A stretch of DNA of 64,000 bases, from IMG/VR virus record IMGVR_UViG_3300032315_001694; one strand, given 5' to 3'. Source of the stretch: a virus (taxonomy: Duplodnaviria > Heunggongvirae > Uroviricota > Caudoviricetes). Each line of letters opens with the position of its first letter. Within the stretch, counting starts at the first letter, position 1. The notes beneath the pieces are model-generated. The model saw only the letters and a list, made by a program, of their open reading frames with translations, was not told the DNA's origin and searched no databases. Below, one piece after another: positions 113 to 50,110 of this stretch. The position numbers and the translations under genes are program-made.

Positions 113-835
113 TTATATATTATAATTTAAAATCAAATATTCTGTTCCTAAATTATGTTTCTTTGAAACCATTCTATAATCTTTATACCATTCTTTCATT
201 ACCGGAAAATCATAATAACTTAGGATCCAAGATGATTTAAGATTAAATAAGTTATCACGGAGTTCGATATGCTTATCATCATTCCAATTATGATTTGTAT
301 AATACGATTCATATCCTCTATAAATCGGGTCACAATAGAAGAAAACATTTGTTCCATTATCATATTTCTGAAATATTTTTTTATAATCCAAATTCTCTAT
401 CTCTAACCTCTTGAAGTATTCTATATATCTTGGTAATTTATATTTGAGAACTTCAAAAGAAGCATTACCTCGGTAGTTTTTAGACATAATATCTTTCAAA
501 TCACCACAAACTAAAATAACTAACCAAGAAATGGCTTTCAATTCTTTTGATTTTGATGTTAAATTATCAAAACATTCTAAATAAAAAGATTCAGTCACTT
601 TAGTTGTTAAGACCTTTTGAATGAACTTTTCCTTCTTTAATTGTTCAAACAAATTACAATTAAGCGGATTGATATCATTGTAAATAAACTTTGTATCTGG
701 ATACTCCTTTAAATTAAGAGTAAAATAAAGTCCCATCATGCCACCAAAAGGTTCAATCCAATACTCTGGATTTTTAGGACAATGTGGTAAGATAAAGTCT
801 GAAAGTGTAGATTTATTTCCGATGTAGCTAATCAT
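113..835 (-). CDS. dam: N6-adenine DNA methyltransferase, Dam/D12 class
   Basis: N-terminal Y-x-G-N-K; EPFGGMMG (FxGxG AdoMet motif); DPIY (DPPY-type catalytic motif). Confidence 0.65.
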   Translation of the reverse strand: MISYIGNKSTLSDFILPHCPKNPEYWIEPFGGMMGLYFTLNLKEYPDTKFIYNDINPLNCNLFEQLKKEKFIQKVLTTKVTESFYLECFDNLTSKSKELKAISWLVILVCGDLKDIMSKNYRGNASFEVLKYKLPRYIEYFKRLEIENLDYKKIFQKYDNGTNVFFYCDPIYRGYESYYTNHNWNDDKHIELRDNLFNLKSSWILSYYDFPVMKEWYKDYRMVSKKHNLGTEYLILNYNI

Positions 836-1096: not shown

Positions 1097-2215
1097 TTAT
1101 TTGCCACTATTCTGAAACTCTTTTTTATCATTCGAAATGTAAAACTTAGAGAAATCATAATTATCTTCATAGATATCTTTCAAATCCTTTAATTTGATAG
1201 TATCTAATATATCATATACAGACCAACCCTTTGGTGTAAGATATTGACCGATATTTTTATATCTTAGTATTTCTTCTTTCTCTCTTCGAGTCATATAGTA
1301 ATCTTTAACCAAGTTAAATCTATCTTTTGTTAAAAACTTGTCTTTTTCTTTTAATACCTTCTCAACAGAATCAATTACCTTATTGACATTCTTATTATTT
1401 GTCAAAGTAGAAATATTAATGATACCTTGTAAATTATGACGAGATTGATAACAATGGATGAAATAGACTAAACCCTGATTCTCTCTTACTTCTTGATAAA
1501 GTGGTGATTTTAATCCAAGAGATAACATAGCATTTAAGAAATGAATTTCAGCATTTTTTTCTTCAACTACCGGACTTAACATAATTAAGCTTGTTTTATC
1601 TTTAAAAGAGTTGCCTAATTCTAAAGGAACTTTATTATTTCCAAAGGAAATATTTTTTACAATTGTTCTGTCAGAGAATTCAATATCTAAGTTTTTCAAT
1701 TTCTTGGTTTTAGAAATATTGATAATTTTACTTGGTTTCATATATTGCAACTCAAAAAAATTAAGACAATCCATAAATTTAAGATTTTCTAAATCACTTC
1801 TCAATCCAATAGGATCATAATCATTAAATAACTTTCTCATTAAATTTAGATTATGTGATTGTGATTGGTCATTAAAGCAATCCTCATACTCAGAAAGAAC
1901 AATATTTCTTTCATTTTCAAATTGTTCTTTAGTGATATCAAATGAAGAAACAGATTTCAATATTTTATTACGGTACTTATTTAATTTAGATTCAAGTCCG
2001 GTAAAATAAAAATTAATGATGTTATTATCAGTGTAGGCATTCCAATCAATAGAATCCCTATCAAAATCTTCAAGCAAATCAAAGAAAGTTTTACACATCA
2101 AATGTTCCATTAAATGTGATATACCGTAATTACCTTTCTTTTCTAAATTTGTAGATCCTTCATAGACAATATAGAATCCAGATAGGTCGTTTTGTGATTT
2201 AAGATTTATAATCAT
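1097..2215 (-). CDS. M16 (pitrilysin/insulinase)-family zinc peptidase-like protein
   Basis: GISHLMEHLMCKT contains the inverted HxxEH zinc-binding motif of the M16 family; 372 aa. Confidence 0.45.
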   Translation of the reverse strand: MIINLKSQNDLSGFYIVYEGSTNLEKKGNYGISHLMEHLMCKTFFDLLEDFDRDSIDWNAYTDNNIINFYFTGLESKLNKYRNKILKSVSSFDITKEQFENERNIVLSEYEDCFNDQSQSHNLNLMRKLFNDYDPIGLRSDLENLKFMDCLNFFELQYMKPSKIINISKTKKLKNLDIEFSDRTIVKNISFGNNKVPLELGNSFKDKTSLIMLSPVVEEKNAEIHFLNAMLSLGLKSPLYQEVRENQGLVYFIHCYQSRHNLQGIINISTLTNNKNVNKVIDSVEKVLKEKDKFLTKDRFNLVKDYYMTRREKEEILRYKNIGQYLTPKGWSVYDILDTIKLKDLKDIYEDNYDFSKFYISNDKKEFQNSGK

Positions 2216-3191: not shown

Positions 3192-3755
3192 TTAAAATCC
3201 TCTCGACAAAGATTGTTGAATACCCAAAACACGATGTTGAGCTTTTAGAAAATCTATATTAGCCAATACTTTATTATCTGATGACTCTTCTTGATCAGTA
3301 ATCGAATCTGTAACAAACCAGGTTTTTTGTGTATTTTGAATTACTGAAATAGTATCACCACTCGGATATTCTTTATTACAATAATTCATTCCACTTTCAG
3401 GCGTTGTATTGAAACTTCTTTTCTTAAACTTTAAATCTTCAATAAACTTGAAATGTAATTCATCTTTATATTTTGATTCTAACTCCTTAGTCATAACTAA
3501 AAACCAAAGACCAGTTTCATCTACATCATAAGATATTAATCTATAACCATTACTCATTAGCCTACTTTGACAATCTTCAATCTCTTTTATTTCAGGTTTC
3601 GAATAACAATCCTCAAAATATACAACCGCCACACCAACTGATAAATCATCCATCCATATTTTAGGAGTCGTATCACCAACATATTGAAGAATATCTAAAA
3701 CATCATCCAAATCAGTTTCTTCTATTCTTTCATTAAATCTTTTTAAGTATTTCAC
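3192..3755 (-). CDS. N-motif family paralog (MKYLKRFNERIEE)
   Basis: N-terminal signature; tandem same-strand array. Confidence 0.55.
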   Translation of the reverse strand: MKYLKRFNERIEETDLDDVLDILQYVGDTTPKIWMDDLSVGVAVVYFEDCYSKPEIKEIEDCQSRLMSNGYRLISYDVDETGLWFLVMTKELESKYKDELHFKFIEDLKFKKRSFNTTPESGMNYCNKEYPSGDTISVIQNTQKTWFVTDSITDQEESSDNKVLANIDFLKAQHRVLGIQQSLSRGF

Positions 3756-3765: not shown

Positions 3766-4536
3766 TTATTTATAAAATGGTAAGCAGAATTTATAAAATA
3801 TTCCGTATTTACCTTCTAAGATGAATACCGCACCAAAGTAAGATTCAAATCGTCGAATTAAATCACTATTATAGTTAATTGTTATATAGTTCCATCTATC
3901 ACCAAATATAGGAATCATTATAATATATCCTTTTGGATGGTCTAATGTCTTTGAAATATCAATCATTTTTGAAGCGAGATTTAGATAGTCACTTGTCACA
4001 TCTTCATATTCTGAATATAAGCAATCAATGATAAATTCTTTATCATCCTCTGTAAATTCTTTCTTTTCAGGTATATCCCAGATAGTACCTGAAATTAGAT
4101 TTTTAATAGTTTGTCCTACATATCCATATAAAATCTCTCGATATCCTTGTTTGTATAATTTCTGGCTATTTTCTTTTTTAAAATCATCAGTATAATTCAA
4201 ATAGTTGTCATCGAATTTAAAAGATTCAAGTTCTTTTTTAAACCTATTACCCCATCTGGACTCAGTGAAATACTCTGACCAAATAATAAATTGCTGAGCC
4301 ACCGCTGTAATAGATCCATTTGTTGAGTTATAGTCCAATCTATTAGCAACAATAAATATGGTTTTAATATCTAATATGGTATCATAACTAAATGATAAAT
4401 TCAAGTTACTAGTAGTGAATTTATTCACATCTCTAACATAAGTTTCTAAATAATGAGATAGATATTTAATCTTATCTACCAATTCATTTTTAGTTATGCT
4501 AGATTCAAATATTTTAAACGAATCTAAATACTTCAT
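3766..4536 (-). CDS. N-motif family paralog (MKYLDSFKIFESS)
   Basis: N-terminal signature. Confidence 0.55.
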   Translation of the reverse strand: MKYLDSFKIFESSITKNELVDKIKYLSHYLETYVRDVNKFTTSNLNLSFSYDTILDIKTIFIVANRLDYNSTNGSITAVAQQFIIWSEYFTESRWGNRFKKELESFKFDDNYLNYTDDFKKENSQKLYKQGYREILYGYVGQTIKNLISGTIWDIPEKKEFTEDDKEFIIDCLYSEYEDVTSDYLNLASKMIDISKTLDHPKGYIIMIPIFGDRWNYITINYNSDLIRRFESYFGAVFILEGKYGIFYKFCLPFYK

Positions 4537-5517: not shown

Positions 5518-5547
5518 AAAATTATTTGTTTTTTAAAATTTATTTAT

Positions 5548-5555
5548 TATATTTG
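5548..5555 (+). promoter_or_regulatory. Bacteroidetes-type -7 promoter element TAtaTTTG, 9 nt upstream of the ATG at 5565
   Basis: Exact TAnnTTTG consensus; also supports 5565 as the start of the downstream kinase-like gene. Confidence 0.45.
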
Positions 5556-5564
5556 TATCTCTTT

Positions 5565-6242
5565 ATGAACAAAAATCTTTTAAGTATAGGTCTTACTGGT
5601 TGTCGATTCTCTGGTAAAGATGGAGTCTCTAAGTTGTTTCGACAGCTTGGTGTTCCGGTTTTTGATGCTGATGTAGTAGTAAAGTATTTACTTAATTATC
5701 GTGATAGTATGCCTGAATCTGTTCGTAAAGCATTTGGTCGTGAATATGTTTTTGGAGAATATATCAATCCGATAGCATTTGATACTGATGAAAAATTCTC
5801 CTCTCTTATTGATTTAATCGAATTTGAAGTATTTGAATCTTATGATAGGTTTTGTAAGAAACATAAAGATAATCAATACACAATTTTCCACTCTTCTATT
5901 ATCCACGAAAAAAATTGGTCAAAAAAGTTTGACCGAGTAATTTGTGTTTTCACCCCTAAAGATGTAAGAATCGAAAGGTATAAGAGAGAAACAGGTGATC
6001 GACTTGAAACTATCTGGTCAATTTTTAATAAAGAAATGAATGAAACTCACAAAAATCAAATGAGTGATTTTATCATTCACAATTATGAAGACGCTCCCGA
6101 TATCTTAAAACAAGTTAAAAATGTTGATGATAAAATTGTCGATGTTTATCTTGAAAAGTATTATCAATTAAAAAGAAAGATTGAAGTAGAAAAATCAGAT
6201 TTTAACAAACAATCAATTCACAAAAATATTTATACCGTCTAA
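5565..6242 (+). CDS. dephospho-CoA kinase (CoaE)-like P-loop kinase with atypical Walker A (GxxxSGKD)
   Basis: MNKNLLSIGLTGCRFSGKDGV...FDADVVV parallels CoaE IGLTGGIGSGKS...DAD. Start moved from the tracked 5526 to the Met following the promoter motif. Confidence 0.5.
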   Translation: MNKNLLSIGLTGCRFSGKDGVSKLFRQLGVPVFDADVVVKYLLNYRDSMPESVRKAFGREYVFGEYINPIAFDTDEKFSSLIDLIEFEVFESYDRFCKKHKDNQYTIFHSSIIHEKNWSKKFDRVICVFTPKDVRIERYKRETGDRLETIWSIFNKEMNETHKNQMSDFIIHNYEDAPDILKQVKNVDDKIVDVYLEKYYQLKRKIEVEKSDFNKQSIHKNIYTV

Positions 6243-6244: not shown

Positions 6245-6709
6245 ATGAACGCAAAAGTAAAATGTGTTGGAAGTCCAAACAATATGTTACAATATGTAAA
6301 AATAGTCAAGACTCATAGTGGACTTGGCCTAAAACAGGCTAAAGATTTCTGTGACGCGACCAGAGAAAATCGAGGAAAACAATTTATTCTTGAAATACAA
6401 ACTTCTGTTCAGGAATTTGAAAAAGAGATACGTGAGCATTTAGGCGATTCAATACAAGTTTGTAACCGTGAGAAAGAACGTCAAATTAAATTGCTTTCTT
6501 TAGGTTTAGGAGATAAATCTGATTTGATAGAACTACTGGCTGAAGAAATGGCTTCTGAGTTAGTTCACAAAACAAGAACAGATTTTGGAGCTAGTCTATA
6601 TACTGTTTTTACTGATTATATGGCTGATTTTTTAACAAATCTTAACTCAGAACAACTTGACGAATTATTTAATAATAAACTTATAAAAGAAAAAGAACAA
6701 AATGGCTAA
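6245..6709 (+). CDS. hypothetical protein
   Basis: 154-aa ORF tightly packed in the plus-strand operon. Confidence 0.4.
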   Translation: MNAKVKCVGSPNNMLQYVKIVKTHSGLGLKQAKDFCDATRENRGKQFILEIQTSVQEFEKEIREHLGDSIQVCNREKERQIKLLSLGLGDKSDLIELLAEEMASELVHKTRTDFGASLYTVFTDYMADFLTNLNSEQLDELFNNKLIKEKEQNG

Positions 6710-9058: not shown

Positions 9059-10954
9059 ATGAGTATCGTTCAAACAATTCTGTCTTACTGGTGGGCTCTA
9101 CCTATTCTCCTTTCAGTAGTATTTTACAAATGGGTTTTCCGTCTTTTTGGTATCGTAATAGTACCCGAAGATAAAATCGGTCTTGTGACCAAAAAATTCG
9201 TTCTTTTCGGTGATAATAAAGAACTATCTGGTGACCGTATCATCGCCACCAACGGTGAAGCTGGCTACCAAGCAACGTATCTATCACCAGGCCTTCATTT
9301 CTGGTATTGGCCTTGGCAATATGAGATTGATATGCAATCTTTCGTAGTAATACCAGAAGGTAATGTTGGTCTTATAAATTCTAAAGATGGTCTTATCATC
9401 AAAACTGGTCGTATCTTAGCACGTAGAGTTGAATGTAATAACTACCAAGATGCACAAGCTTTCTTGAATAATGGTGGTCAAAAAGGTCGTCAATCAGCAT
9501 TCATTCCATCAGGTGTTTATAAAATCAATACACTCTTGTTTGAGATATCTGTTGTAAAACAAGCTCATATTCAAGATAATATGGTTGGTATTGTTACCAC
9601 TCTTGATGGTGAGCCACTTGAACATGGTACTATCGCTGGTAAAGTAGTTGATAACTCTTTACACAATAACTTCCAGGACTTCGATGCTTTCCTTGAAGCA
9701 GGTGGTAATCGTGGTTTACAACAACAAATCATACAGGCTGGTTCTTATAACTTAAACCCTTGGGCTGTTAATGTTGAAGAACTTCCAATGACCGAGGTTC
9801 CGATTGGACACGTAGGTGTTGTAATGTCTTACTATGGAGATGAAGGTGTTGATGTGACTGGTAAAGACTTCAAACATGGTAACCTTGTAGCTAAAGGACA
9901 AAAGGGTGTATGGGCTGAACCTTTAAACCCAGGTAAATACCCAATTAATAAATACACTACCAAAGTTGAAGTTGTTCCTACAACTAATCTTGTTCTTAAC
10001 TGGGCAACTGGTAGAAATGAATCTCACAATCTTGATAAAGGATTAAGCACTATTACAGTACGTTCTAAGGACGGTTTCACTTTCAATCTTGATGTATCTC
10101 AGATTATCCACGTTCCTATGAGTGAAGCTCCAAAAGTTATTGCTCGATTCGGAACTATGAATAACCTTGTATCTCAAGTTCTTGAACCAACAATTGGTAA
10201 CTACTTCCGTAACTCAGCACAAAGTTCAGATGCGATTTCATTCTTAACTTCTCGTGTGGAACGTCAGAACGAGGCTAAGACTCACATCTCTAGAGTTCTT
10301 GATGAGTATAACGTTTACGCTGTAGATACCTTAATTGGTGATATTACACCTCCACCAGCACTTATGGAAACCTTAACTTCTCGTAAGATTGCTCAAGAGC
10401 AAATCATTACTTTTGAAAATCAGAAGAAGGCTCAGGTACAACGTCAATCTCTTGAAAAAGAAACAGCTATCGCTGAAATGCAGAAAGAAGTTGTAAAAGC
10501 TGAACAATCAGTTAACATTGCTGAAAGAAACGCCGATGCTTCTGTTAAGAAACAAGAGGGTGAGTCTAAAGCCGTTAAAATCGCAGCTGAGGCAGATGCT
10601 CAAGCTACTGAATTAAGAGCTAAAGCTGAATCTACTCGTATCGCACTTACTGGTCAAGCTGAATCTGAAAAGATCCTGGCTATTGGTAAGGCAAACGCTG
10701 AATCTTACCGTTTGGCTGTTGATGCGATGGGTAAAGAAAACTTCACCTCTTACAAAATGACTGAGGAAATTGGTAAGAGTGGTATCAAGTTGATGCCAGA
10801 ACTTCTTATCCAAGGTAGTAACGGTGGTGGTTCATCTATCGATGGATTACTTGGATTACAAATCCTTGAAAAAATGGGTAAGAGTGTATCTCCAACTCAA
10901 GAAGTGCCAGCTGAGGAAGTTAAATCAGAAGATAAAACTTCTAAGAAGAAATAA
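9059..10954 (+). CDS. SPFH/band-7 (flotillin-like) membrane protein
   Basis: N-terminal TM helix, SPFH-like core, long C-terminal coiled coil (AEADAQATELRAKAESTRIALTGQAESEKILAIGKANAESYRLA) typical of flotillin/YqiK. Confidence 0.65.
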   Translation: MSIVQTILSYWWALPILLSVVFYKWVFRLFGIVIVPEDKIGLVTKKFVLFGDNKELSGDRIIATNGEAGYQATYLSPGLHFWYWPWQYEIDMQSFVVIPEGNVGLINSKDGLIIKTGRILARRVECNNYQDAQAFLNNGGQKGRQSAFIPSGVYKINTLLFEISVVKQAHIQDNMVGIVTTLDGEPLEHGTIAGKVVDNSLHNNFQDFDAFLEAGGNRGLQQQIIQAGSYNLNPWAVNVEELPMTEVPIGHVGVVMSYYGDEGVDVTGKDFKHGNLVAKGQKGVWAEPLNPGKYPINKYTTKVEVVPTTNLVLNWATGRNESHNLDKGLSTITVRSKDGFTFNLDVSQIIHVPMSEAPKVIARFGTMNNLVSQVLEPTIGNYFRNSAQSSDAISFLTSRVERQNEAKTHISRVLDEYNVYAVDTLIGDITPPPALMETLTSRKIAQEQIITFENQKKAQVQRQSLEKETAIAEMQKEVVKAEQSVNIAERNADASVKKQEGESKAVKIAAEADAQATELRAKAESTRIALTGQAESEKILAIGKANAESYRLAVDAMGKENFTSYKMTEEIGKSGIKLMPELLIQGSNGGGSSIDGLLGLQILEKMGKSVSPTQEVPAEEVKSEDKTSKKK

Positions 10955-12281: not shown

Positions 12282-12301
12282 ATTAATACACTATTTTTTG
12301 A

Positions 12302-12334
12302 TAAAAAAAAAGCCCTGTAAAAACAGGGCTTTTT
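12302..12334 (-). terminator. rho-independent terminator after the S1-like gene (agccctg/cagggct hairpin; T-run on minus strand)
   Basis: 7-bp stem; a 9-nt A-run on the plus strand is a T-run for the minus transcript. Confidence 0.6.
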
Positions 12335-12339
12335 CTTCA

Positions 12340-13449
12340 TTAAGCAACTGTCAAGAAGATCTTACGATTCGATCTATCAACTGCTAAAACTTTGACTTTC
12401 AAATCTTGGTCAGCTTGAAACTTACGACCAATCTTTTCAAGTTCAGAGTTGTGAATCAAACCCATAGTTTCATCATCAAGAGAAATAAGAGTTCCGAATG
12501 CCTTGTTATCTTTTACTTTACCGTCGATAACTTGACCAATTTTGATATTATCCCAAAGAGATTCACGAAGGATTTGAGTAAGGATAATTTTATCCTTGAT
12601 AATTTCTTTAACATAGAAATTAATTTCCATGCCTGGTTTAATCTCAGAAAGTCTATCAGACCATTCTGGATTGATGTTAGCTTTGTGAATCATACCAGTT
12701 AAACAATCATTAAACTCAACGAAAACACCAAATGGAGTTGTTCCAGTAACGTGTCCTTCATAAACCGTATTTGATTTTAATTCATCAATTGCTTGAGGAA
12801 TTAACGTTCTCAAATACTTTCTACGACTTACAATATAAGTACCTTCATTTTCTGAGAATGATTCAATCATCACATTTAACGTCTGACCGACAATTGAATT
12901 TGGATCGTGTAACTTATTGATACCAGCTAAAGTATTTGGCATAAATCCTGGTAGGGTTACACCATCGTGTAGAATATCAATATCATATCCAGCTGGATTC
13001 ATACTACGAATAACTGCGGTTACAACTAAATTCTCATCAAGAGCCTTTAAGGTTGCATGTGCCTTAGATTCATAAATAGCTGCTATTGATCCTCTAATGC
13101 TATAGTTACTTTCATCAATATGAACCAATAAAACATCAATCTTATCACCGACTTGAGTGTTTTTTAAATATTTTGATTCAGATGGACGATTTTCTATATA
13201 AACATCATCTTTGAATCCTCTAACTGAGAAAGAGTACTGTTCAGATGAAATACCAAGGTAAATACCGGATACAATTTCGTTTCTAACGGGTTGTGAGATC
13301 AAAGAACTTTCAAGTAATTTTGCCATTGCTTGATACTCTGGCGTTTGGCGAATTGCCCCTTTTTTGTTTTTAAGTTTAGATTCTTGGAACATTAGTTCTT
13401 CCCAGAAATCATCATCATTTTTTTCTACTACAATTTTTTCTTCTATCAT
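12340..13449 (-). CDS. ribosomal protein S1-like protein with multiple S1 RNA-binding domains
   Basis: Repeated S1-domain signatures: GQVIDGKVKDNKAFGTLISLDDETMGLIHNSEL; YEGHVTGTTPFGVFVEFNDCLTGMIHKANI; GDKIDVLLVHID. 369 aa with about four repeats. Confidence 0.6.
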   Translation of the reverse strand: MIEEKIVVEKNDDDFWEELMFQESKLKNKKGAIRQTPEYQAMAKLLESSLISQPVRNEIVSGIYLGISSEQYSFSVRGFKDDVYIENRPSESKYLKNTQVGDKIDVLLVHIDESNYSIRGSIAAIYESKAHATLKALDENLVVTAVIRSMNPAGYDIDILHDGVTLPGFMPNTLAGINKLHDPNSIVGQTLNVMIESFSENEGTYIVSRRKYLRTLIPQAIDELKSNTVYEGHVTGTTPFGVFVEFNDCLTGMIHKANINPEWSDRLSEIKPGMEINFYVKEIIKDKIILTQILRESLWDNIKIGQVIDGKVKDNKAFGTLISLDDETMGLIHNSELEKIGRKFQADQDLKVKVLAVDRSNRKIFLTVA

Positions 13450-13502
13450 TTTATTTGATTTTAAAAGGTTACAAAATTTTATATGATTAAAAACTTGAAA
13501 GT

Positions 13503-13886
13503 TTAAATATTTTTATTTATATTATTGACTTTCATATAATCTCTAATCCTGGAAGCCTCTTCATAATTCTCATTTTGAATTGCTGTTTTAAGCTTCTCAT
13601 TTAATTCTATTTCTAATTCTTCTTTTGTTTTACGGCTTTTCAATCCTTCTAAGTCATCCAAAAGAGATTTATAATACTTTTTCATCTCCGATATAGAGTT
13701 GAAATGTAAATAATTATCCTTAATTCCATTATTAGCCATATCAGATAATTTATCTGATTCTGTTATTTTTTCTAAGAATTCTGGATTAAGAGCCTTATTT
13801 TCAATAAGAAAATTAGTTAAATGATGAGGTCTATTTTGAAATAATTTTAGAACAACTAATAGATTTTGATAAGATTCATCACTCAT
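13503..13886 (-). CDS. hypothetical protein with C-terminal UVR-like motif
   Basis: IQNENYEEASRIRDYM resembles the UvrB/UvrC UVR interaction motif. Confidence 0.35.
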   Translation of the reverse strand: MSDESYQNLLVVLKLFQNRPHHLTNFLIENKALNPEFLEKITESDKLSDMANNGIKDNYLHFNSISEMKKYYKSLLDDLEGLKSRKTKEELEIELNEKLKTAIQNENYEEASRIRDYMKVNNINKNI

Positions 13887-13895: not shown

Positions 13896-14630
13896 TTATA
13901 TTTTTTCATAATAAAGTTTAAAGAAATAATCAAAACAATATTGTGTTGCATTTCTTTCTTGAGTAAAAGTTATAATAGTAGATGAAAAATCATACTCTGT
14001 TTGACTTTGAAATTTCTTTAATTGATATTGTGTTGTACCAACATCTGCTGGTAAAGATGCTGTTCTTGTCGGTTGTCCTATATTAGAAGTTCCCGCCCAT
14101 AAGTTATTATATTTTAAAACCGACTGATTTTGAATATCAACATACTTAACATAAAGATCTATCCTAACCAACTTATATCTATCTAAAACATTTTTAATAA
14201 TATATTCCTTGATAGCAAAGTCAACATCACCATTCTTTGTCATCTCATTCTTAACTCCTTCAAAAGTTCTCCATCTCTTTAGAGTCGCAAAAATAAAATT
14301 GGTTAAAATAGTTTTTAAATCAATAGTTAAAATCCAACGAGCATCCGTATCTTTTTGACTAACACCTTGTGATGGATCTAAAACCAATGTATGATTCAAT
14401 CTTTTATCTTCTGATGAAGAATAAGAAACCGGTGGTAAAGATGATTCAATGATTAAATCTAATTGTTCTTTATTCAAATTTTGAAAATAAACCAAACTCT
14501 GGTTATCAATATAAACACTATCTTCAATTTCCAACATTTTAGAACCAAATGGAGAAGATTGCTCCTTCATATTGTAAGTTCCATAAACTCTTGAATAATC
14601 AAATTCAGGTGATATGTAAGTCCTTCTCAT
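13896..14630 (-). CDS. hypothetical protein, likely virion/tail-associated
   Basis: Immediately upstream on the same strand as giant structural genes. Confidence 0.35.
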   Translation of the reverse strand: MRRTYISPEFDYSRVYGTYNMKEQSSPFGSKMLEIEDSVYIDNQSLVYFQNLNKEQLDLIIESSLPPVSYSSSEDKRLNHTLVLDPSQGVSQKDTDARWILTIDLKTILTNFIFATLKRWRTFEGVKNEMTKNGDVDFAIKEYIIKNVLDRYKLVRIDLYVKYVDIQNQSVLKYNNLWAGTSNIGQPTRTASLPADVGTTQYQLKKFQSQTEYDFSSTIITFTQERNATQYCFDYFFKLYYEKI

Positions 14631-14995
14631 TAGATACTATTATATTTTTTAACAATACTCTGAATATAAAGAGTTTGATAGATGTTCTGTAAAGTCGGAA
14701 CAGATGAAATATTTGGTTTATTTACCTCTAAATGATATTCAAAGTCCCAAGTGGATTTAAAAATAAAATAATCCGCAACCATATATCCATACTCATCCAA
14801 CATTGGATAAATTGAATCATATGTTGTATCATTCCTTAATTTCAGAATGTTTTCTTTTCTATTGATTTTAGATACCACTCTTTGCTTCATTACCCCAAAT
14901 AATGATAAACCATCGTCAAATGTGTAATTACCCAAACGCATTTGTAAAGATTGTATCGGAGAAGTTGTATAAACACTTTGTGAGAATATTGCCAT
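14630..14995 (-). CDS. hypothetical protein, likely virion-associated
   Basis: 121-aa ORF, start/stop overlap with neighbour. Confidence 0.35.
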   Translation of the reverse strand: MAIFSQSVYTTSPIQSLQMRLGNYTFDDGLSLFGVMKQRVVSKINRKENILKLRNDTTYDSIYPMLDEYGYMVADYFIFKSTWDFEYHLEVNKPNISSVPTLQNIYQTLYIQSIVKKYNSI

Positions 14996-15041: not shown

Positions 15042-18000
15042 TTAAAATCCAAAAGCTTCAGAATATTGTGCATATTGTTCGTTACTGAAAACAAAATAAT
15101 TATTCTGATCACACCCTACTACTATACCATTAGTTAGAATAAAATCAAGTAGTTGTGTTCTCGAACCAATTGGAACTTGCATTATCTGTCCATATAATTG
15201 TAGTAGTAAACTAGGATCTCCATATTGTCCTATTCCTTTCGAGGTGTTCGAACCTAAAATAGGAGCTAACAATAAATAAGCATTATTGAAGTCCAAACTC
15301 TGAGATATTGTATAATCATTACTAACAAATGAGTTCCAAATGCGACTAATAGAAGCAGTTGCTGAAACAGGACAATTTACCTCAGGAAGTGAATTTAAGA
15401 ATGTGTGAAATGGTGTGTAAGGCCGATTTTGTATAGAATATTGTATATAACTAACACTCATTGGACCACAATCTGGACAACATAAATTAACTGAACTTTT
15501 TGAAATCGTGAATTCATTATCTGTCAGAGCCTCCTGAATTGATTCCAGGTTGTATTCATTTTGTTCAAAGAAGTATTGTAAGATATTCTTACAAGGATCA
15601 TTTTGAGATGCTGTTATTCTAACATCACATTTATCAGATTTATACTTAATTGAAAGAACAAAATAACCTGACTCTATTTGTGGGTGTATTAAAGTGTTAC
15701 CTGGTTCATATACATCTATTTCAAACCCTAAATCTGAGTAAATCGAAAGTGGTGATATTGTTGATGTTATCTGAGTGTAGAAATTTTCCCAAGATGTTAA
15801 AGAACTACTTGTAAATCCACCTACTGGTGGAAATAAATCTAATTCCATTTGTTCTAATAAATCACCTCTCCAAAAATCAAAATTAACAGGTTGATTAGGA
15901 TCAAATCCACTTAAAACAAATTGTACATCACACAAACTACCAACATCATATAAAGAAGAATCTCTAAATAATTCTACTTCATAGAAAATCGGCATATAGT
16001 AACCAGTGTGTCTGAAAATATGTTGAAAAATCTCAGTTTTTTGATTGTTATAGTTTGGTAATACCTGAGGATCTGATTTAACATTAGTGATTTCAACTCC
16101 CAATGGTACCTCATTATAGAAATCTATTTTTTCTAAATTATCAATTTCACCATTAACTAGTGAACGATAAGGTTTAAGTGTATTCTTATCTAATGTTTTT
16201 AAAGAATATCTAAGAGAATCATTTTTCAAATTTAACTCATCAGGTTCTTCACAAACTATATAATATGGTAAACTCTCAAGATTATTTCCAAATTTATACT
16301 TTTTAAATGTTCCATCTTCTTCAATAACAACATAAGATGTATAATCAGCAAATCCATAGATGGTATCCAAATCATTTATTTGTCTGATAAAATTAGCCGC
16401 AGTCAATCTACCATTTGTTTCAACATATAAATTGTCTCTCTCAATATTTCTAGTTTCATCCATAATTAAGGCATTACTCGAAATAGTATTATCATTGATA
16501 GCAATATTGACTAAAACATTCTTCCATTTCTTATTGATATAAATTGTAATTCCGTTGTCCAAAGTTATATTTGGATTGTATTGACAATAATAATAAGTAT
16601 CACCTATTTTTACAATAGAATTACTCATAGTACCATAGATAAATGATGTATCTGGCACAAAACTGTAAATTCTACCCCAGTTGGTTGAAACTCCTGGAAT
16701 ATCTTCATATGTTACCGAACTATTAGATAAATAAAGAGTCTCATTATAAACAACATATTTTGATGTTGAGTAACCTGAGTTTTTATCCCACAACTCAATC
16801 TTTTTCCAATTAAAATTTTGAGATGTAGAATCATCTACAACTACCTCTCTCCAATACTTATCTTCACTACTTGATTGTATTTTTCTATCTTGTGTTACTG
16901 GATGTACTCCGACTGGAACATAGCTTGAACTAAATGTCACGGCCGAGAAAAATCTGTTATCATAAATGACAGTATTTCCAATACTGTAAGTAGATGTAGA
17001 TGGATTCCAAAAACTAACAGTCGAACCACTATTATTGAATTGATAATATTCATCATAAATATAAACCCAAGAAGCAGTTGCTGCATAGTTCCAAAACTGA
17101 TTAAAGTTAGTAGCCACACTATAAGAACCAACTAAGTTGATTGGATTATCTAACGGATTAGATATTGTAACCCCATCAATTACCCGGAATGATACACCTT
17201 CATACATAACATAATCACCGACATTATAGGATTTATCATGCTCCCAATTTCTTATTACTTGCCATTGCATTTTATTTCTCCAGATTCCTGGTTGTTTTGG
17301 TGTACTTCTAACAAATGGTTTATCAGTAGTAAAACCATAACCGCCATAAGTAAAAATACCAACATCCCTAACCACTGATGCTGTCGCCTGATATTCAGGA
17401 GTTATATAAGGATAAAACTGGTCAATTTCAACAATATCACCAACACTAACATTAGATGGTGACATTCCATAAGAAGTTAAGAATCCAACATTACCATTAT
17501 AACTAAATTGATTATCAATAAAGTAATTCCAATAATATGGCTTATATAAAGTTGATTCATCAGAAACCATCCAATCATTACTACTCAATAAGATAGAAAA
17601 TTTGTAATCCTGGAATAGATTCGATGAAAATAAATTTATATTTTCAATAGAAGTTGGATTATTTTTTATACTATCAACTTCAAACAATCTAAATTTTAAA
17701 CCTCTAAATACGGTTGTATTTGGTTCTACTCTATCACCACCTTCAAAGTAGGAATATTTCTTTTTATTGTGAACTAATTCACCATCAATGAAAGATTGAG
17801 TTTGTGAAAAGAATAAATCAAAATAACTAAAAGTATATGTATATGGTTGTCCTAAGAAAGAAGCTGAACCAATTTCTAAATATTTATCTAATTCAAATTG
17901 ATAAGAACTATCTTGAGCATTTCCAATATTTTTCTCCACATGAAGTGAATGATGTAAATATGAAGTGGTTCCAGAATTTATTGTATAAAAATAATCTAGA

Positions 18001-19883
18001 TTTCTAGATGGTCTATAAGGCATCAAATTCTTAGTATCAACAGTTCTGTTATAATCCTCGTGAACATCATTGTTATTTAATAAGTAAGGATAATCATGAG
18101 CTGATAAAGAGTTTTGATATCCCCAACGACAGTAAACTGGATTTTTTCTCCAAAGATCCGTCAATTTATTGTTTTCAACTCTAAATGTTTCTAAATTAGC
18201 TGTATAATCAGAAGAAACGGGAACCAACTCAGTTTTACCTTTGAAAATAAAATCATCAAAATCTTGTGGAGATGATTTACTTCTTAAATCAGTTAAGTGC
18301 ATCTTAGTTTCTTCAGTTTTAGTTAGGTCATTTCTTTTCTCATATTCAAATCGAGACATCTCTGAATCTACAACTTGAGTGTCAAAATCTTTAACATCAG
18401 CAAATTTCAATCTATAAATTTTAAAACTCTTAGGAAGATTATTCTTTGTAATCAATAAATCCCAAGTAAAACTAAATCCATCTGCCTCGGCATTTGTATA
18501 ATAAGTGAAAGAATTCTTTTCAGAAAATTTAAATCCATAATCAGTTACTAAAGTTAAATATCCATTTTGATATTGAATATTGTGATAAATGCCATTAATT
18601 TCTATAATATTAACATCAGCAAAACCAATATCATTTATAATATAAGCACTACCATTTAACTTAACAATCTGATTTTGAGGGTTTATATAACACCCCCTTT
18701 GATTTAAAATAGGATAACCCGCAGTTGCACCAGTAGAACCGGATAAATTCAAATCAGAGATTATTCGATACTTAGTCACCACTGGATTTTTTACAGTATC
18801 AACTACTACTTTTTTAGCTTTACCTCCGATATTTTGAGCTACTACTGATAAATCAGATGTTTCTTCAAACTTCTTCACCAAGAAGAAATTGCCTTCGTAT
18901 TCAACCCACATATCAATGTCATCACGGAATCTGTCTTTAAATGGATCACCGTTAATTGGAGATGCTAATACATTACCTGAATAAATCACGACATCATCCC
19001 AAAGTTCAGCCATGCTATAGGGGGTAACTGCGTCAATCAATTCTAAATCTTCTAAATAAAATCCAGCATAACGATTAATTGACCATTTTCTTAGAGAATC
19101 AGGTGTAGCTGGTGTGTCATCAAATAAGTAACTCATATTCAAAATATGAGGAAAAACAACACGATTGACTCTATAACCATCTAAGAAAAATCTTTCAAAA
19201 TCAAATAAAGTATTTTCATTTTCAAGATTCTCACCTAAATAAAGCGGTTTATAAGTCCAACCACCACTATCATAATCTATTCCTATCCATTTAGTAAATT
19301 CCAAATCTCTGAAATCAACCTCAAGTGGAGCAATAGGAAAACTAACATTGTTTGTAAAATTATTCTCAAACCACTCACCCAGAACTGTATTCTTAGTTAA
19401 ATCAAAAACTTTAACAGTTTTTAAATTATTTAAAAATTCAGTCCTAAAATTATTTCTGGTTAGAGTATTCAAACCTGGACCATCTACTCTAAAAATGATA
19501 AAGTATTTTGGTAAACTGTGTTTAAAGACATAAAGAGGCGCAAAATATTCAAATTCTTCTGGATAATTTTTATTATCAAGAATATTTCTAGCACCTGCTA
19601 AATAAACATCATCATACTGAGTTGAGAAATCAGTTGACATATTATCATTATCTTTATCATATTTAACACTGAAAGCTATATCAACCGGAAAATCTTTGAA
19701 AAAATAAGGAACTAATTCATCAAGAAAATTATTCTTATTGAATTGAACTTTTTTGAATCTGGTTGCCGCCAATTCTGGAGCAGAATCAATACTCTCTAAG
19801 TATAAATTGTATTGACTATCTACAATAATTTTTACATTTGTTGATAATCCAGTATGTGTTCTTAATATGCTGAATGATTTCAT
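15042..19883 (-). CDS. very large virion structural protein (putative tail fiber / baseplate / host-recognition protein), 1613 aa
   Basis: Size; Asn/Ser/Thr/Tyr/Gly-rich beta-type composition; contiguous with second giant ORF; no enzymatic motifs seen. Confidence 0.45.
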   Translation of the reverse strand: MKSFSILRTHTGLSTNVKIIVDSQYNLYLESIDSAPELAATRFKKVQFNKNNFLDELVPYFFKDFPVDIAFSVKYDKDNDNMSTDFSTQYDDVYLAGARNILDNKNYPEEFEYFAPLYVFKHSLPKYFIIFRVDGPGLNTLTRNNFRTEFLNNLKTVKVFDLTKNTVLGEWFENNFTNNVSFPIAPLEVDFRDLEFTKWIGIDYDSGGWTYKPLYLGENLENENTLFDFERFFLDGYRVNRVVFPHILNMSYLFDDTPATPDSLRKWSINRYAGFYLEDLELIDAVTPYSMAELWDDVVIYSGNVLASPINGDPFKDRFRDDIDMWVEYEGNFFLVKKFEETSDLSVVAQNIGGKAKKVVVDTVKNPVVTKYRIISDLNLSGSTGATAGYPILNQRGCYINPQNQIVKLNGSAYIINDIGFADVNIIEINGIYHNIQYQNGYLTLVTDYGFKFSEKNSFTYYTNAEADGFSFTWDLLITKNNLPKSFKIYRLKFADVKDFDTQVVDSEMSRFEYEKRNDLTKTEETKMHLTDLRSKSSPQDFDDFIFKGKTELVPVSSDYTANLETFRVENNKLTDLWRKNPVYCRWGYQNSLSAHDYPYLLNNNDVHEDYNRTVDTKNLMPYRPSRNLDYFYTINSGTTSYLHHSLHVEKNIGNAQDSSYQFELDKYLEIGSASFLGQPYTYTFSYFDLFFSQTQSFIDGELVHNKKKYSYFEGGDRVEPNTTVFRGLKFRLFEVDSIKNNPTSIENINLFSSNLFQDYKFSILLSSNDWMVSDESTLYKPYYWNYFIDNQFSYNGNVGFLTSYGMSPSNVSVGDIVEIDQFYPYITPEYQATASVVRDVGIFTYGGYGFTTDKPFVRSTPKQPGIWRNKMQWQVIRNWEHDKSYNVGDYVMYEGVSFRVIDGVTISNPLDNPINLVGSYSVATNFNQFWNYAATASWVYIYDEYYQFNNSGSTVSFWNPSTSTYSIGNTVIYDNRFFSAVTFSSSYVPVGVHPVTQDRKIQSSSEDKYWREVVVDDSTSQNFNWKKIELWDKNSGYSTSKYVVYNETLYLSNSSVTYEDIPGVSTNWGRIYSFVPDTSFIYGTMSNSIVKIGDTYYYCQYNPNITLDNGITIYINKKWKNVLVNIAINDNTISSNALIMDETRNIERDNLYVETNGRLTAANFIRQINDLDTIYGFADYTSYVVIEEDGTFKKYKFGNNLESLPYYIVCEEPDELNLKNDSLRYSLKTLDKNTLKPYRSLVNGEIDNLEKIDFYNEVPLGVEITNVKSDPQVLPNYNNQKTEIFQHIFRHTGYYMPIFYEVELFRDSSLYDVGSLCDVQFVLSGFDPNQPVNFDFWRGDLLEQMELDLFPPVGGFTSSSLTSWENFYTQITSTISPLSIYSDLGFEIDVYEPGNTLIHPQIESGYFVLSIKYKSDKCDVRITASQNDPCKNILQYFFEQNEYNLESIQEALTDNEFTISKSSVNLCCPDCGPMSVSYIQYSIQNRPYTPFHTFLNSLPEVNCPVSATASISRIWNSFVSNDYTISQSLDFNNAYLLLAPILGSNTSKGIGQYGDPSLLLQLYGQIMQVPIGSRTQLLDFILTNGIVVGCDQNNYFVFSNEQYAQYSEAFGF

Positions 19884-19886
19884 CTA

Positions 19887-22800
19887 TTATTTAACTACGG
19901 TTGTATAATTTTTTGGTTTAGAAGCAAATGTTACTTTGTTTCTATTTAAGTTGAAAATCAAAGTAAACACAAATGGTTTATTTTCAGCCTCGTTTTCTAT
20001 GAAGAATTTTAACTTCTTGATGTGTTTAACTGTTTGTGTTTGTTTATTTAAGTTAATATACTCATAGTTGACACCAGTTTGTGTGTTATCTAAAGCATTC
20101 ATTTTAAAGTAAATATTAATAGGTAAAATAATTTCTCCACCACCATCAATAGAACGAACTTTATCTTGATTAGTCTCAACAATATTTGACAAATCGTTAA
20201 TAACCGGATGTATAGTGGTCAAAAACTTAGTAGTTGAACCAACTGATACCGAAACATCTTTCCACTTACTATTATCAAGAAGCGAACTATTACTTGACAG
20301 AAAAGATAAAGATTGATTTTCGTTATAACCAACATTGTATTCAGTCAAACTCAAAATATTTGTAATTGAGTTGTTATTAGCAGCAACAAAGTTATTACCG
20401 ATATTTTCAAAAAGTCTTGTCACCACATTTGATGAACTTGTTACTGCTTCATAGTTTACCAACCAGATAAACTGATTATTAACTTGAGTTTTACTAACAC
20501 CTGATACATCTGAGAATATTAATTGGTCTTGATTATCAACCCAGAATCCTTGTGGAACATTAGTATTATAAACATCACCATTATTAGCATAAGTCCTATT
20601 TGAAAGAAGTCCCAATACTGAATCAACTGATTTATTTTGAACACGAATAGCAAAATCTTTAATAACATAGATATTATTAGCATAAACTCTACCAGTTGGT
20701 ACACCAGTTCCAGTAAATGATTCTAAATAATCCTCACACTCAACATTAAATGTTGTTTCTGAGTTATTAGTAATCACAAATTCTTGATTATTTCTAATAA
20801 TAACAATTTGAAGTTCACCTTTAGCTCTTTTAATTTTCTCTTCTAAGGATTTAACACGAGTTTCTAAACCTTGTAAATACTCTAAAAGTGATAAAGCTAT
20901 ACTATTTGAATCTTTAAATCCAGATAATACAACATCAGAACTCATATAATATGTTTTATTATTTAGAGTTGCTTGTTGATCTAACAATCCATCTAAACCT
21001 CTTGAAGCCAATTCAGTTTGCATTGAAACTTTCAAATCTTCTTTAGAAGCTTCTTTTAAAATAAAGTCATTATCATCTAATACATTATTTAAATCATCAG
21101 GAAAATCCACTGATAAAATTGGTGACCAATCAGATTCAACCGGCGAATCTGGCCAACCAACTTCTGAAATCGATTTAATTCTTATTTCAACTCTTTCAGT
21201 CGGACCAAGTGGAATATCAAGTTGATTAATATTCGGAGTATCAGCATTTTCTAAATCTTCAATTTGCCAAGTATATTCACCAGTCGCCTTATTATAAGTT
21301 CTTTTTCTTACATCTGACTTAAATTCATTCCAATTTGAGAATGCCGCAGTTTTTTGTTGGGCATCTTGACTTATATTAAAAGTCTCAACTGCCGGTTCTT
21401 TACCATCTTTTGATAAATATCTATATTGAATACGGAATTGAATAACTTCCTGTGGCATTGTTCCTCTAACAATCACAGCTTCTGGCATATTCCAGAATCC
21501 CCTTAATCTATATTTAGGATCAATTTTAGTAGTATTAGCTCTTGATAAATCAATAATTTCTTGAACCGTTGTTGTTAATAATTTAGATTTAGAATTCTTC
21601 TTATTATTCAAATCATCAATCTCAATCTCAAATTTCTTTCTTTCAGATGCTGACGTAAACTTGGTTATTTTCAATTTCTTGTTTCTATCATCAAGCGCTT
21701 CCTGAATCTGCCTTACTTCATTTTTTAATGAAACTGTATAATTATGCTTATTCTTTAATAAATTAGCATCAGTTGAGTCAGTTAAGTGTTTATTAATTTG
21801 AACCACCTTAAAATTAGTAGCATCCAATACTGCAACATTTGGTGTTCCAGACAAACCGTTTGGTTTCTTTTTAGCAACTAAATCATTTAAAAGTGAACCA
21901 TAGTCATAAACAGTTGAGATGTAATACTGCTCCATTGTCTGTCCATTAGTTGAATCAGATGATGAAACTCTTAAATCATTAGTGTAGTAACCAACACCTT
22001 TTGACCAATCTTTCGCAATTAAATTACTATCAGCATTAACTGGTTTAATGAAAAGAACATTTCTTTCATTATATCCAATACTAATTCTTACTTTTTTAGT
22101 ATAGATAACAGGTGAATAAATTTTAAGTGTTCCAATTCCAACCGGAATCGGTTGTAATCCCTCAACTCTTTCAAATATAACTCTTGGATTAGATTCAGTA
22201 GTTGAAATCTCAATTACTTTATATCTTGTGTTCGAAATTGCTTGATTGATAATTAATTCACTACCAATTGATAATTGTTTTACTTCAGTAGTTTCATTAA
22301 TCAAATAATCTAATGTATTAAGATGATAATAAAGTTTTCTATTTAAAACATCTTCTTCAATCCTAATAACGTTAAAAACACCATCATATAGAACACTATT
22401 TGGTTGCAAATCAAACATCTGTTCATCATAATTAATATTAAGTGGCTCAACAATACCAGGTGTGGTTCTATACCAATTCTCAAATTCCTGAACATCTATA
22501 TTTGTATTGCCACGATAAAGATTGTTAAAACTTGTTAAAGCTGATTGACCCAATGTGGTTAAATTACCATTAGCATCATTTGCAAAATCAACAATATATC
22601 GTCTGACTAAACATTTTCTAACATTATTTTCTATTTTATCACTTAAATTGAATTCAATTTTCAAGATAGGATTCAACATTGAATCGAAAAACCAATTTTT
22701 TTCAACTTTAAACTGAGTAACTGTATCTAAAGTTGCAATTGGATTTGGCTCTCTATTTAAATCAACTGTAATGATTTTTTTAAACTGATTTTGAGAAGTC

Positions 22801-23060
22801 GTTTGTATCAAGGCACCAGTTGTATCAATCGAATAAAGAGAATTGATTGAATTATTTAATCTCTCTATTTCACTTTTTAAGAAAGTAAATGATGGTAGAG
22901 AGTATGTTGTTAAAACACCACTCGAATCAAATATCCTAACATCAACATTTGGGTTAGTTGTTGTTGATAGAGAGTTAATTTTTGATAAAATTTCTACTAT
23001 ATTTGAGTTAAACGATGCGATTTGCTCAGCTACCGTTGCGAAACTACTTTGAATTGGCAT
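19887..23060 (-). CDS. large virion structural protein (putative tail fiber/tail-associated), 1057 aa
   Basis: Size, composition, 3-nt spacing to downstream giant gene. Confidence 0.45.
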   Translation of the reverse strand: MPIQSSFATVAEQIASFNSNIVEILSKINSLSTTTNPNVDVRIFDSSGVLTTYSLPSFTFLKSEIERLNNSINSLYSIDTTGALIQTTSQNQFKKIITVDLNREPNPIATLDTVTQFKVEKNWFFDSMLNPILKIEFNLSDKIENNVRKCLVRRYIVDFANDANGNLTTLGQSALTSFNNLYRGNTNIDVQEFENWYRTTPGIVEPLNINYDEQMFDLQPNSVLYDGVFNVIRIEEDVLNRKLYYHLNTLDYLINETTEVKQLSIGSELIINQAISNTRYKVIEISTTESNPRVIFERVEGLQPIPVGIGTLKIYSPVIYTKKVRISIGYNERNVLFIKPVNADSNLIAKDWSKGVGYYTNDLRVSSSDSTNGQTMEQYYISTVYDYGSLLNDLVAKKKPNGLSGTPNVAVLDATNFKVVQINKHLTDSTDANLLKNKHNYTVSLKNEVRQIQEALDDRNKKLKITKFTSASERKKFEIEIDDLNNKKNSKSKLLTTTVQEIIDLSRANTTKIDPKYRLRGFWNMPEAVIVRGTMPQEVIQFRIQYRYLSKDGKEPAVETFNISQDAQQKTAAFSNWNEFKSDVRKRTYNKATGEYTWQIEDLENADTPNINQLDIPLGPTERVEIRIKSISEVGWPDSPVESDWSPILSVDFPDDLNNVLDDNDFILKEASKEDLKVSMQTELASRGLDGLLDQQATLNNKTYYMSSDVVLSGFKDSNSIALSLLEYLQGLETRVKSLEEKIKRAKGELQIVIIRNNQEFVITNNSETTFNVECEDYLESFTGTGVPTGRVYANNIYVIKDFAIRVQNKSVDSVLGLLSNRTYANNGDVYNTNVPQGFWVDNQDQLIFSDVSGVSKTQVNNQFIWLVNYEAVTSSSNVVTRLFENIGNNFVAANNNSITNILSLTEYNVGYNENQSLSFLSSNSSLLDNSKWKDVSVSVGSTTKFLTTIHPVINDLSNIVETNQDKVRSIDGGGEIILPINIYFKMNALDNTQTGVNYEYINLNKQTQTVKHIKKLKFFIENEAENKPFVFTLIFNLNRNKVTFASKPKNYTTVVK

Positions 23061-49765: not shown

Positions 49766-49855
49766 GGTCCTGTGGCGAAAATGGCAGAAACGCATCAGAC
49801 TTAAAATCTGATACCCAAGAGGTAAACGTTGTGGGTTCGACTCCCACCAGGATCA
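49766..49855 (+). tRNA. tRNA-Leu (anticodon TAA), type II
   Basis: Acceptor ggtcctg/caggatc; Leu-type D-arm gtggcgaaaatggcagaaacgc; anticodon stem tcaga/tctga with loop cttaaaa; 19-nt variable arm; T-arm gtggg-ttcgact-cccac. Confidence 0.65.
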
Positions 49856-49920
49856 CAAATGTGAGAGACCGTTTTTAGTTTTTAACAGGACACAAGAGTG
49901 GAATCGTAGAAAACTAAATT

Positions 49921-50003: not shown

Positions 50004-50021
50004 CAGAGTTGTTTTAAAAAT

Positions 50022-50100: not shown

Positions 50101-50110
50101 CAAAAAATAT

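Follow-up and report, generated by a model that had tools for sequence, protein, structure and literature searches.

What might a phage do with a protein built like the bacterial ribosomal protein bS1, and is such a protein a stray host gene, a part of the host ribosome during infection, or something that never meets a ribosome? The question is raised by a gene in a 64,000-nt stretch of viral DNA (Caudoviricetes; IMG/VR record IMGVR_UViG_3300032315_001694), which in its full length is called the window here. The open reading frame (ORF) lies at 12340..13449 on the minus strand, runs from an ATG to a TAA (12340-12342) and specifies an S1-like protein of 369 aa, with bS1 models and bS1 chains as its best matches. 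Judged by its conservation the ORF is not due to chance, since it has 2394 homologues in databases (clusters at 90% identity in a word-indexed search) and 24 aligned relatives have a mean column identity of 69%. The exact protein sequence is also found on scaffold_197 (73.9 kb) of ENA ERZ28593915 and on one Logan contig. The explanation favoured here, with moderate confidence, is that the gene encodes a bS1-derived phage protein that helps initiation on phage mRNAs without a Shine-Dalgarno (SD) sequence and thereby supplements or replaces host bS1.

An original prediction, made from the DNA alone, had described the protein as bS1-like, with an S1 protein of the RNase E/PNPase-associated type as the alternative. 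The bS1 assignment is borne out, as the top matches by NCBIfam profile, by Protein Data Bank (PDB) sequence and by fold are all bS1. The top NCBIfam matches are rpsA models throughout and are matched end to end (aa 31-367 against positions 22-372 of 580, 114 bits), the best-scoring one being NF000907, the S1 part of an IspH-S1 fusion (aa 40-367, 119.6 bits). All 24 relatives tested match the same bS1 models, with E-values down to 1e-38. The best PDB sequence matches are E. coli bS1, to which the identity is about 20% (phmmer, aa 41-366 against residues 4-344, i.e., domains D1-D4), and mycobacterial bS1, and a profile of the full family aligns from position 10 to 370 with residues 4-371 of a 591-aa S1 chain (9zcd_A), which might be a bS1 with an N-terminal extension like that of the phage family. 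In a Foldseek search of the PDB E. coli bS1 on the 30S subunit came first (9gut_B, E 1e-22; also 6h4n_y). The proteins whose S1 regions might have matched better, RNase R/II, PNPase, Tex and NusA, did not do so. PNPase reaches 50 bits over one domain only (NCBIfam), well below the bS1 models, and RNase R 32 bits, also over one domain only; by fold RNase R, Tex and NusA give E-values of 1e-5 to 2e-4, at least 17 orders of magnitude weaker than the 1e-22 of bS1. A single-domain regulator of the CvfD/Ygs/GSP13 type (about 115-140 aa) was rejected as well, as it is matched by the fourth domain alone (74.5 bits against a cut-off of 117 and 72.6 against 148) and there are four domains here. A PHROGs scan of the protein returned chance-level matches only (E 0.08-0.1).

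An AlphaFold2 (AF2) model built from the alignment of 24 relatives contains four separate five-stranded OB barrels (aa 59-121, 142-208, 229-292, and 307-368), each with a helix between strands 3 and 4. Helices 12-28 and 37-49 lie ahead of the barrels, and linker helices 123-136 and 209-222 connect the first three. The mean pLDDT is 76.5 (within the barrels most blocks of 10 residues have 70-88), and the pTM of 0.37 is expected for a model in which domains are arranged like beads on a string. The rough count of four tandem S1 repeats in the original prediction therefore stands, though the Pfam S1 model PF00575 (E 4e-21) recognises two stretches only, i.e., the last two domains, and no other Pfam domain is present in the 369 aa. 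The N-terminal region (aa 1-54; 13288..13449, like all the following domains on the minus strand), delimited from the AF2 helices, phmmer and the family alignment, consists of a variable acidic/basic segment, a conserved (D/E)FW motif (F15), and then helix 37-49. Domain 1 (D1; aa 55-125; 13075..13287; AF2 strands 59-68, 71-76, 83-86, 103-112, and 117-121) is a divergent predicted OB fold without the canonical S1 RNA-binding residues, and its loop G78-x-K80-D81 has the same G, K, and D in each of the 24 relatives. Domain 2 (D2; aa 138-212; 12814..13038) shows the highest conservation in the family (NPAGYD...LPGFMPNTLAGINKL; columns N151-Y155 and G168-N178 do not vary), and this suggests that it has a protein partner which is conserved as well. 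Domain 3 (D3; aa 225-296; 12562..12777; a Pfam S1 stretch, AF2 barrel 229-292) and domain 4 (D4; aa 303-369; 12343..12543; the best Pfam S1 stretch, aa 303-368) are both S1 domains of the canonical RNA-binding type with the FG-F...GxxH signature, which reads PFGVFVEF...GMIHKAN in D3 and AFGTLISL...GLIHNSE...VDRSNRKIFL in D4. D4 also matches GSP13 and the S1 domain of PNPase (NCBIfam, PDB sequence).

Each phage domain was compared with the six E. coli domains by Smith-Waterman scores against shuffles, using an E. coli bS1 sequence checked against the residues in the PDB alignment. Phage D2 resembles E. coli D2 (z 10.1) and none of the other five domains (z at most 3.2). D3 and D4 resemble the RNA-binding domains D4-D6 of E. 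coli (z 9-13), D3 being nearest to D4/D5 (z about 11) and D4 to D5/D6/D4 (z 9-13). The likeness of D1 is weak and non-specific, with z 4.0 against E. coli D1 and 4.8 against D4. With a D2-type domain followed by two domains like D4-D6, the domain order is the bS1 order, docking-type first and RNA-binding after, and on the evidence of these alignments the protein is homologous and collinear with bS1 D1-D4.

A hidden Markov model (HMM) scan of 1.84 billion representatives gave 198 clusters (50% identity) with E <= 1e-30, and as nearly all members are 350-420 aa long, an array of four domains is typical of the family. Some representatives are longer (P0225, P0232, P0249, and P0265; 774-1033 aa), with four to six matched stretches, and may have arisen by tandem duplication of the four-domain unit or by its fusion. 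Some of the contigs that carry members are as long as 444 and 611 kb. The best structural matches in BFVD come from phages, and these proteins already bear the name "30S ribosomal protein S1" or "S1 motif domain-containing protein". When 185,579 species genomes were scanned with two family-specific peptides three loci were found. One is a distant Bdellovibrionales S1-domain gene (27% identity). The other two belong to the family, with 59% identity, and lie on contigs from metagenome-assembled genomes (MAGs) that are 1.8 kb and 43 kb long. With two members among 185,579 species genomes the family is essentially phage-specific.

The nearest GenBank phages found by tblastn are LR756502 (642 kb, 63% identity) and LR745206 (635 kb, 60%), followed by LR756504 (636 kb, 42%) and by LR756501 and LR756503 (735 kb, 41%), the identities to these LR genomes extending over 84-97% of the query; Lak megaphages match with 40% over aa 145-293 only. 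A megablast of 12 kb around the gene against GenBank phages gave one short match of 72.5% and no close nucleotide relative. Nine neighbouring genes have matches in LR756502, where the order is NAD-ligase, 1057 aa, 1613 aa, 121 aa, 244 aa, UVR-motif protein, S1, and SPFH protein. A similar order is found in a 254-kb JGI contig, and the neighbourhood is not kept in LR756501. LR756502 is one of the largest genomes that were curated and circularized by Al-Shayeb et al. (2020), who placed all the largest genomes in a "Mahaphage" clade and predicted Bacteroidetes hosts for those above 634 kb (PMC7162821). The phage context that was originally proposed for the S1-like gene is, on these comparisons, secure. 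It is conceivable in principle that a cellular rpsA, or a recent host-derived copy of it, had been placed on a misassembled or misbinned contig, and the bacterial labels of the two MAG contigs (Flavobacteriales and Ca. Muiribacterium) as well as the name "ribosomal protein S1" given by JGI to many homologues would fit this. However, the scores against all cellular rpsA models are very low, the only members in the genome collection are the two on small MAG contigs, the family occurs on contigs of 254-611 kb with phage-like content, and the window has the hallmarks of a phage (a tRNA array, large ORFans, and phrog_29329). Contamination was rejected as extremely improbable because the orthologue sits among conserved neighbours, in conserved order, inside the published huge-phage genome LR756502.

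The dedicated terminator noted in the original prediction is also found. It is an intrinsic terminator at 12301..12340 (minus strand), directly 3' of the S1 stop, and folds as RNA into a hairpin of -23.8 kcal/mol (z = -5.96; 0 of 200 shuffles equally good). The core stem (12312-12318 paired with 12323-12329) has the GC core AGCCCUGU/ACAGGGCU and is followed by a U9 tract (12303-12311); given the A-tract at 12330-12334 the terminator is potentially bidirectional. A consensus terminator scanner run over the window missed this hairpin, which direct RNA folding revealed, because A/U pairing runs the stem on into the U-tract. A hairpin and U-tract of unrelated sequence stands 3' of the orthologue in LR756502, LR756501, the 254-kb JGI contig, and the 43-kb MAG contig, and as terminators of differing sequence occur at these four further loci the presence of a terminator is conserved at the locus, and a transcription unit ends with this gene. 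On the other side of the gene a candidate motif, (C)TTGTAAC, is located 11-25 nt 5' of the S1 ATG in this window (TTGTAAC at 13468-13474), in LR756502, and in the 254-kb JGI contig, and CTTGTAAC recurs 11-18 nt before the S1 ATG in the latter two. E. coli rpsA has a known autoregulatory RNA site, and by analogy the motif could be such a site or else a piece of a promoter. A sigma-70 promoter scan of the window, at 30% GC, was uninformative (33 matches against 23 expected).

The start sites were surveyed for the 64 long ORFs of the window, which has a GC content of 30.5%. An SD-like 4-mer at -20..-4 is present in 4 of the 64 genes, compared with 10.5% of random 17-mers. A makes up 53-59% of positions -17..-11 and about 40% farther upstream, and G 2-12%; the regions upstream of the start codons are of the kind used for initiation in Bacteroidetes. 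According to one proposal, the A-rich Bacteroidetes initiation element is read by bS1 (PMC3155529). Baez et al. located domain 4 of bS1 near mRNA nucleotides -12 to -15 on the ribosome, and A at -3, -6, -12, and -13 promotes initiation in Flavobacterium johnsoniae (PMC6847099). As domain 4 sits there, a D1-D4 protein would reach the A-rich element. The S1 gene itself has an upstream intergenic region of 53 nt (13450..13502, minus strand) with no SD motif and with A at -1 to -3, -5 to -7, and -10 to -13, which includes all four of these positions.

The original prediction had linked the protein to leaderless messages, for which bS1 was thought to be especially needed, and to a near-leaderless spacing of promoter and start codon throughout the window. 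The first idea fails, as S1 is dispensable for leaderless mRNAs in E. coli (PMC3296737). As to the second, most genes have A-rich upstream regions of the leadered type. A AATAATATATA-type motif with the core TATATA ends 4-7 nt before the start codon of 9 of the 64 ORFs (about 0.2 expected), i.e., those at 3192-3755, 3766-4536, 14630-14995, 31105-32973, 43553-44128, 58711-59292, 59306-59860, and 60225-61166 on the minus strand and 41072-41638 on the plus strand. It looks like a phage-specific, perhaps late, promoter that would yield leaderless or near-leaderless mRNAs. A TATATA run is also seen in LR756502, where it stops 6 nt short of an ATG just past the S1 terminator. The sequence TAnnTTTG, a Bacteroidetes primary-sigma -7 promoter motif, ends 4-5 nt before three ATGs on the plus strand (23632, 29429, and 38925), and two of these sites have the longer context AATAATTTAGTATATTTGTAG in common; these motifs support a Bacteroidetes host and imply leaderless transcripts. 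If both motifs are promoter elements the mRNAs concerned are leaderless or nearly so. It is the absence of SD sequences together with the A-rich region at -11..-17, and not leaderless mRNAs, that fits bS1 (PMC3155529, PMC6847099).

Could the protein be held on a ribosome? E. coli bS1 is anchored chiefly by its N-terminal helix, in which Phe5 and Phe9 stack on Phe32 of uS2; F5A or F9A abolishes binding to the ribosome and to uS2, while the salt bridges of Asp39 and Lys43 in D1 are of minor importance, the Lys43 loop contacting the zinc pocket of uS2 (PMC4288201). In the phage protein the predicted helix aa 37-49 stands directly ahead of D1, as in bS1 (AF2), and phmmer aligns aa 41-50 (AMAKLLESSL) with E. 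coli residues 4-13 (SFAQLFEESL). K80 aligns with Lys43, within the family-invariant G-x-K loop. Docking on uS2 is therefore plausible in view of these alignments.

A number of observations weigh against a bS1-derived initiation protein on the ribosome. Met42 and Leu46 are found opposite the essential Phe5 and Phe9 of E. coli, the relatives having mostly Met or Leu at position 42 and in most cases Tyr at position 46, and the equivalent of Asp39 is Val76. No match at E <= 10 was obtained with phmmer for aa 1-137 against the PDB. A profile of the N-terminus and D1 from 21 sequences gave chance matches only (FKBP3, L21, and a penton protein), and one from the N-terminus to D2 gave marginal bS1 matches (E 4e-4 to 2e-3) with no stretch individually significant. 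D5-D6 are absent. Many genes are possibly leaderless, and S1 is not required for such mRNAs in E. coli (PMC3296737). Finally, the rpsA models that match best and end to end are scored 4-6-fold under every curated cut-off (NF000907, 119.6 against 624 bits; NF004952, 114.2 against 524; TIGR00717, 94.7 against 577; NF005208, 87.8 against 368); as no cut-off is approached the S1-like protein is no rpsA equivalog.

These points bear on another explanation, in which the protein is an RNA chaperone or mRNA-fate factor that binds single-stranded A/U-rich RNA in the cytoplasm and is never a component of the ribosomal subunit. Its role might then be to shield phage transcripts, to unfold RNA structure, or to bring in or activate a nuclease or a component of the degradosome. 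Host S1 activates T4 RegB, and regulators of the CvfD/GSP13 type and the four-domain S1 of Firmicutes act comparably. The failure at every rpsA cut-off, an N-terminus and D1 that are unrecognisable from sequence, the match of D4 to CvfD/GSP13 regulators at 72-75 bits, and a four-domain length like that of the Firmicutes-type S1 (NF005208, 13-347 of 391) would all be in line with this, as would the loss of the anchor residues Phe5 and Phe9 (PMC4288201). On the other hand Pfam and PHROGs searches with the neighbours, and the gene order in the 254-kb contig, revealed neither a nuclease domain nor a nuclease gene conserved nearby, and the family has kept the D2-type domain, the preceding helix, and the invariant G-x-K loop, which in bS1 are for protein docking and not for RNA binding; it is moreover D2 that is conserved most. 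A function away from the ribosome is regarded as rather unlikely.

The truncation relative to six-domain bS1 allows for another possibility. When S1 fragments 1-106 and 1-194 are overproduced in E. coli, native S1 is displaced and bulk translation stops but leaderless mRNAs are spared (PMC3296737), and the phage protein could be a competitive decoy of this kind, which docks at the bS1 site and without D5-D6 fails to serve host leadered mRNAs, whereas leaderless or short-leader phage mRNAs are still translated. The TATATA-type motif at nine genes and TAnnTTTG at three, suggesting many leaderless transcripts, agree with such a role. However, a pure decoy would have no need of the two canonical RNA-binding domains that are kept, most genes of the window have the A-rich upstream regions typical of leadered Bacteroidetes initiation, the region upstream of the S1 gene itself is of the leadered type, and the docking that a decoy presupposes is itself only inferred. 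The decoy is accordingly considered improbable. It is tempting to go further and speculate, at similarly long range, that the D1-D4 protein outcompetes six-domain host bS1 at uS2 and switches ribosomes to a phage-specific mode of initiation while host translation collapses. By the same analogy, and with as little confidence, the reprogrammed mode might favour leaderless late mRNAs or those with leaders of 0-3 nt (with AATAATATATA or TAnnTTTG by their start codons) along with short A-rich leaders. If true, this would be the natural counterpart of the artificial effect of S1(1-106) and S1(1-194) in E. coli.

The favoured explanation, a bS1-derived protein aiding initiation on SD-less phage mRNAs, can be put together as follows. 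The protein belongs to a phage-specific family that is derived from bacterial bS1 and is found in huge phages of the "Mahaphage" type with predicted Bacteroidetes hosts. The N-terminal helix, the degenerate D1, and the D2-type domain would make up a protein-docking half, and the two canonical S1 domains D3-D4 a half that binds single-stranded RNA. During infection D3-D4 would attach to the 5' regions of phage mRNAs, which are A-rich, unstructured, and SD-less, and the N-terminal half would dock near uS2, so that these mRNAs are delivered to, or held at, the entry/platform side of the host 30S subunit. Host bS1 would thereby be supplemented or replaced and initiation biased to phage messages. 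The gene is the last of a transcription unit, which ends at the gene's own strong terminator. Start-site choice in bacteria without SD pairing is still unsettled, and S1-like proteins, should they really bind to host ribosomes, would give phages direct control over which mRNAs are selected in such bacteria.

The genes around the S1 locus are partly conserved with it. Directly 5' of S1 is a gene for a 127-aa protein with a C-terminal UvrB/UvrC (UVR) motif (13503-13886, minus strand; E 4e-7), and a UVR-motif gene is next to S1 in LR756502 and the 254-kb JGI contig also. The head of the same-strand block that ends with S1 and its terminator is formed by two very large ORFs of 1613 aa and 1057 aa (15042-23060, minus strand). 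The 1613-aa protein has a weak CBM5/12 match and the 1057-aa protein matches phrog_29329, which has no assigned function; both are conserved in LR756502 (46% and 65% identity, respectively), and should they belong to the virion, S1 would be expressed late along with them. Pfam and PHROGs searches with the 1057-, 1613-, 121-, 244-, and 142-aa neighbours gave no clue to function beyond the UVR motif, CBM5/12, and phrog_29329. Also present are an SPFH/Band-7 protein of 631 aa (9059-10954, plus strand) and an NAD-dependent DNA ligase with a BRCT domain (23632-25464, plus strand), and also a D12-class adenine methyltransferase (113-835, minus strand), an M16 peptidase (1097-2215, minus strand), and a dephospho-CoA kinase (5526-6242, plus strand).

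Other genes of the window point to translation. Twelve tRNA genes (four for Leu, two each for Val and Thr, and one each for Asn, Cys, Ile, and Arg) are located in a tRNA/synthetase region (49766-51844 and 52259-54621) together with a class II aminoacyl-tRNA synthetase of the Asp/Lys/Asn type (53440-54621; E 1e-64), which indicates that the phage invests in translation. A 391-aa ORF by the tRNA array has a faint class I synthetase signature. A 154-aa ORF at 6245-6709 (plus strand) has a weak match to the Pfam L7/L12 C-terminal domain (E 1e-4; 22.8 bits against a cut-off of 25.9), and a 154-aa gene at the same position in the 254-kb JGI contig (14816-15280) has the same weak match; going by these matches it could be a second divergent ribosomal-protein-like gene.

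One of the closest known systems is E. coli bS1 (RpsA, 557 aa; PDB 6H4N, 9GUT, and 6BU8), with a tandem OB/S1 array to which the phage protein is collinear over residues 4-344, a D2-type domain, two canonical RNA-binding domains, a G-x-K loop of the Lys43 type, and the top fold matches. It differs in having six domains and not four, and the phage protein has about 36 additional N-terminal residues with a helix and the DFW motif, Met42/Leu46 in place of Phe5/Phe9, Val in place of Asp39, and a putative association with the ribosome. The phage protein has as many domains as the four-domain S1 of Firmicutes/Clostridia and is of similar length (NF005208, and the S1 part of the IspH-S1 fusion NF000907), but the scores are far under the cut-offs of these models (368 and 624 bits), the phage family adds the N-terminal helical segment, and the predicted hosts are Bacteroidetes. 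Firmicutes S1 has been predicted to be non-functional in initiation, according to work cited in PMC3155529. The phage bS21 proteins are of an unrelated fold but offer a functional parallel, being initiation-linked small-subunit proteins from phages of SD-poor hosts that have been proposed to replace the host protein and favour phage mRNAs. PMC13157829 credits Mizuno et al. with the experimental demonstration that ribosomal proteins of viruses are able to take the place of their host homologues in ribosomes; S1 was deliberately excluded by Mizuno et al. (2019) as functionally ambiguous.

Relatives are found in other phages as well. Full-length structural matches of the same length class are A0A8D9CG03, "30S ribosomal protein S1 [uncultured marine phage]" (373 aa; E 3e-45, 45% identity), A0A7S9STL2 of Virus NIOZ-UU157 (380 aa; E 3e-30, 33% identity), and A0A6J5NIG6 of an uncultured Caudovirales phage (385 aa; E 2e-21, 21% identity). 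Al-Shayeb et al. (2020) listed S1 among the ribosomal proteins of huge phages, noted that phages with "possible rpS1s" rarely have identifiable SD sequences, and proposed that these proteins hijack initiation (PMC7162821). To the same family belong the genes at complement(348265..349335) in LR756502 and complement(360015..361088) in LR756504 (63% and 42% identity over 84-93%), which in GenBank are annotated only as "RNA binding S1 domain protein" at the coordinates of the tblastn matches. The gene described here shares with these "possible rpS1" genes the neighbourhood (LR756502), a low-GC, SD-less genome that is presumably huge, predicted Bacteroidetes hosts, and the proposed role, and differs in coming from another, apparently undescribed relative. 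It is thus a further member of a published huge-phage S1 class, and as the gene family and the hijacking idea have been known since 2020 the finding itself is no discovery. The available text of Al-Shayeb et al. (2020) does not report the domain-level anatomy of phage S1 (PMC7162821), and our search of the literature found no functional study of a phage S1. What is added here, as read from alignments and the predicted fold, is the D2-type domain, the invariant Lys43 loop, the altered Phe5/Phe9 positions, and the exact D1-D4 span, along with the size of the family, its phage specificity, and its conserved terminator. Being large and essentially restricted to phages, the family lends itself well to a single biochemical study, and its anatomy makes the idea more testable, in that compared with E. 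coli bS1 the D1-D4 span up to -12 to -15, D2, and the Lys43 loop are kept while the two phenylalanines are changed.

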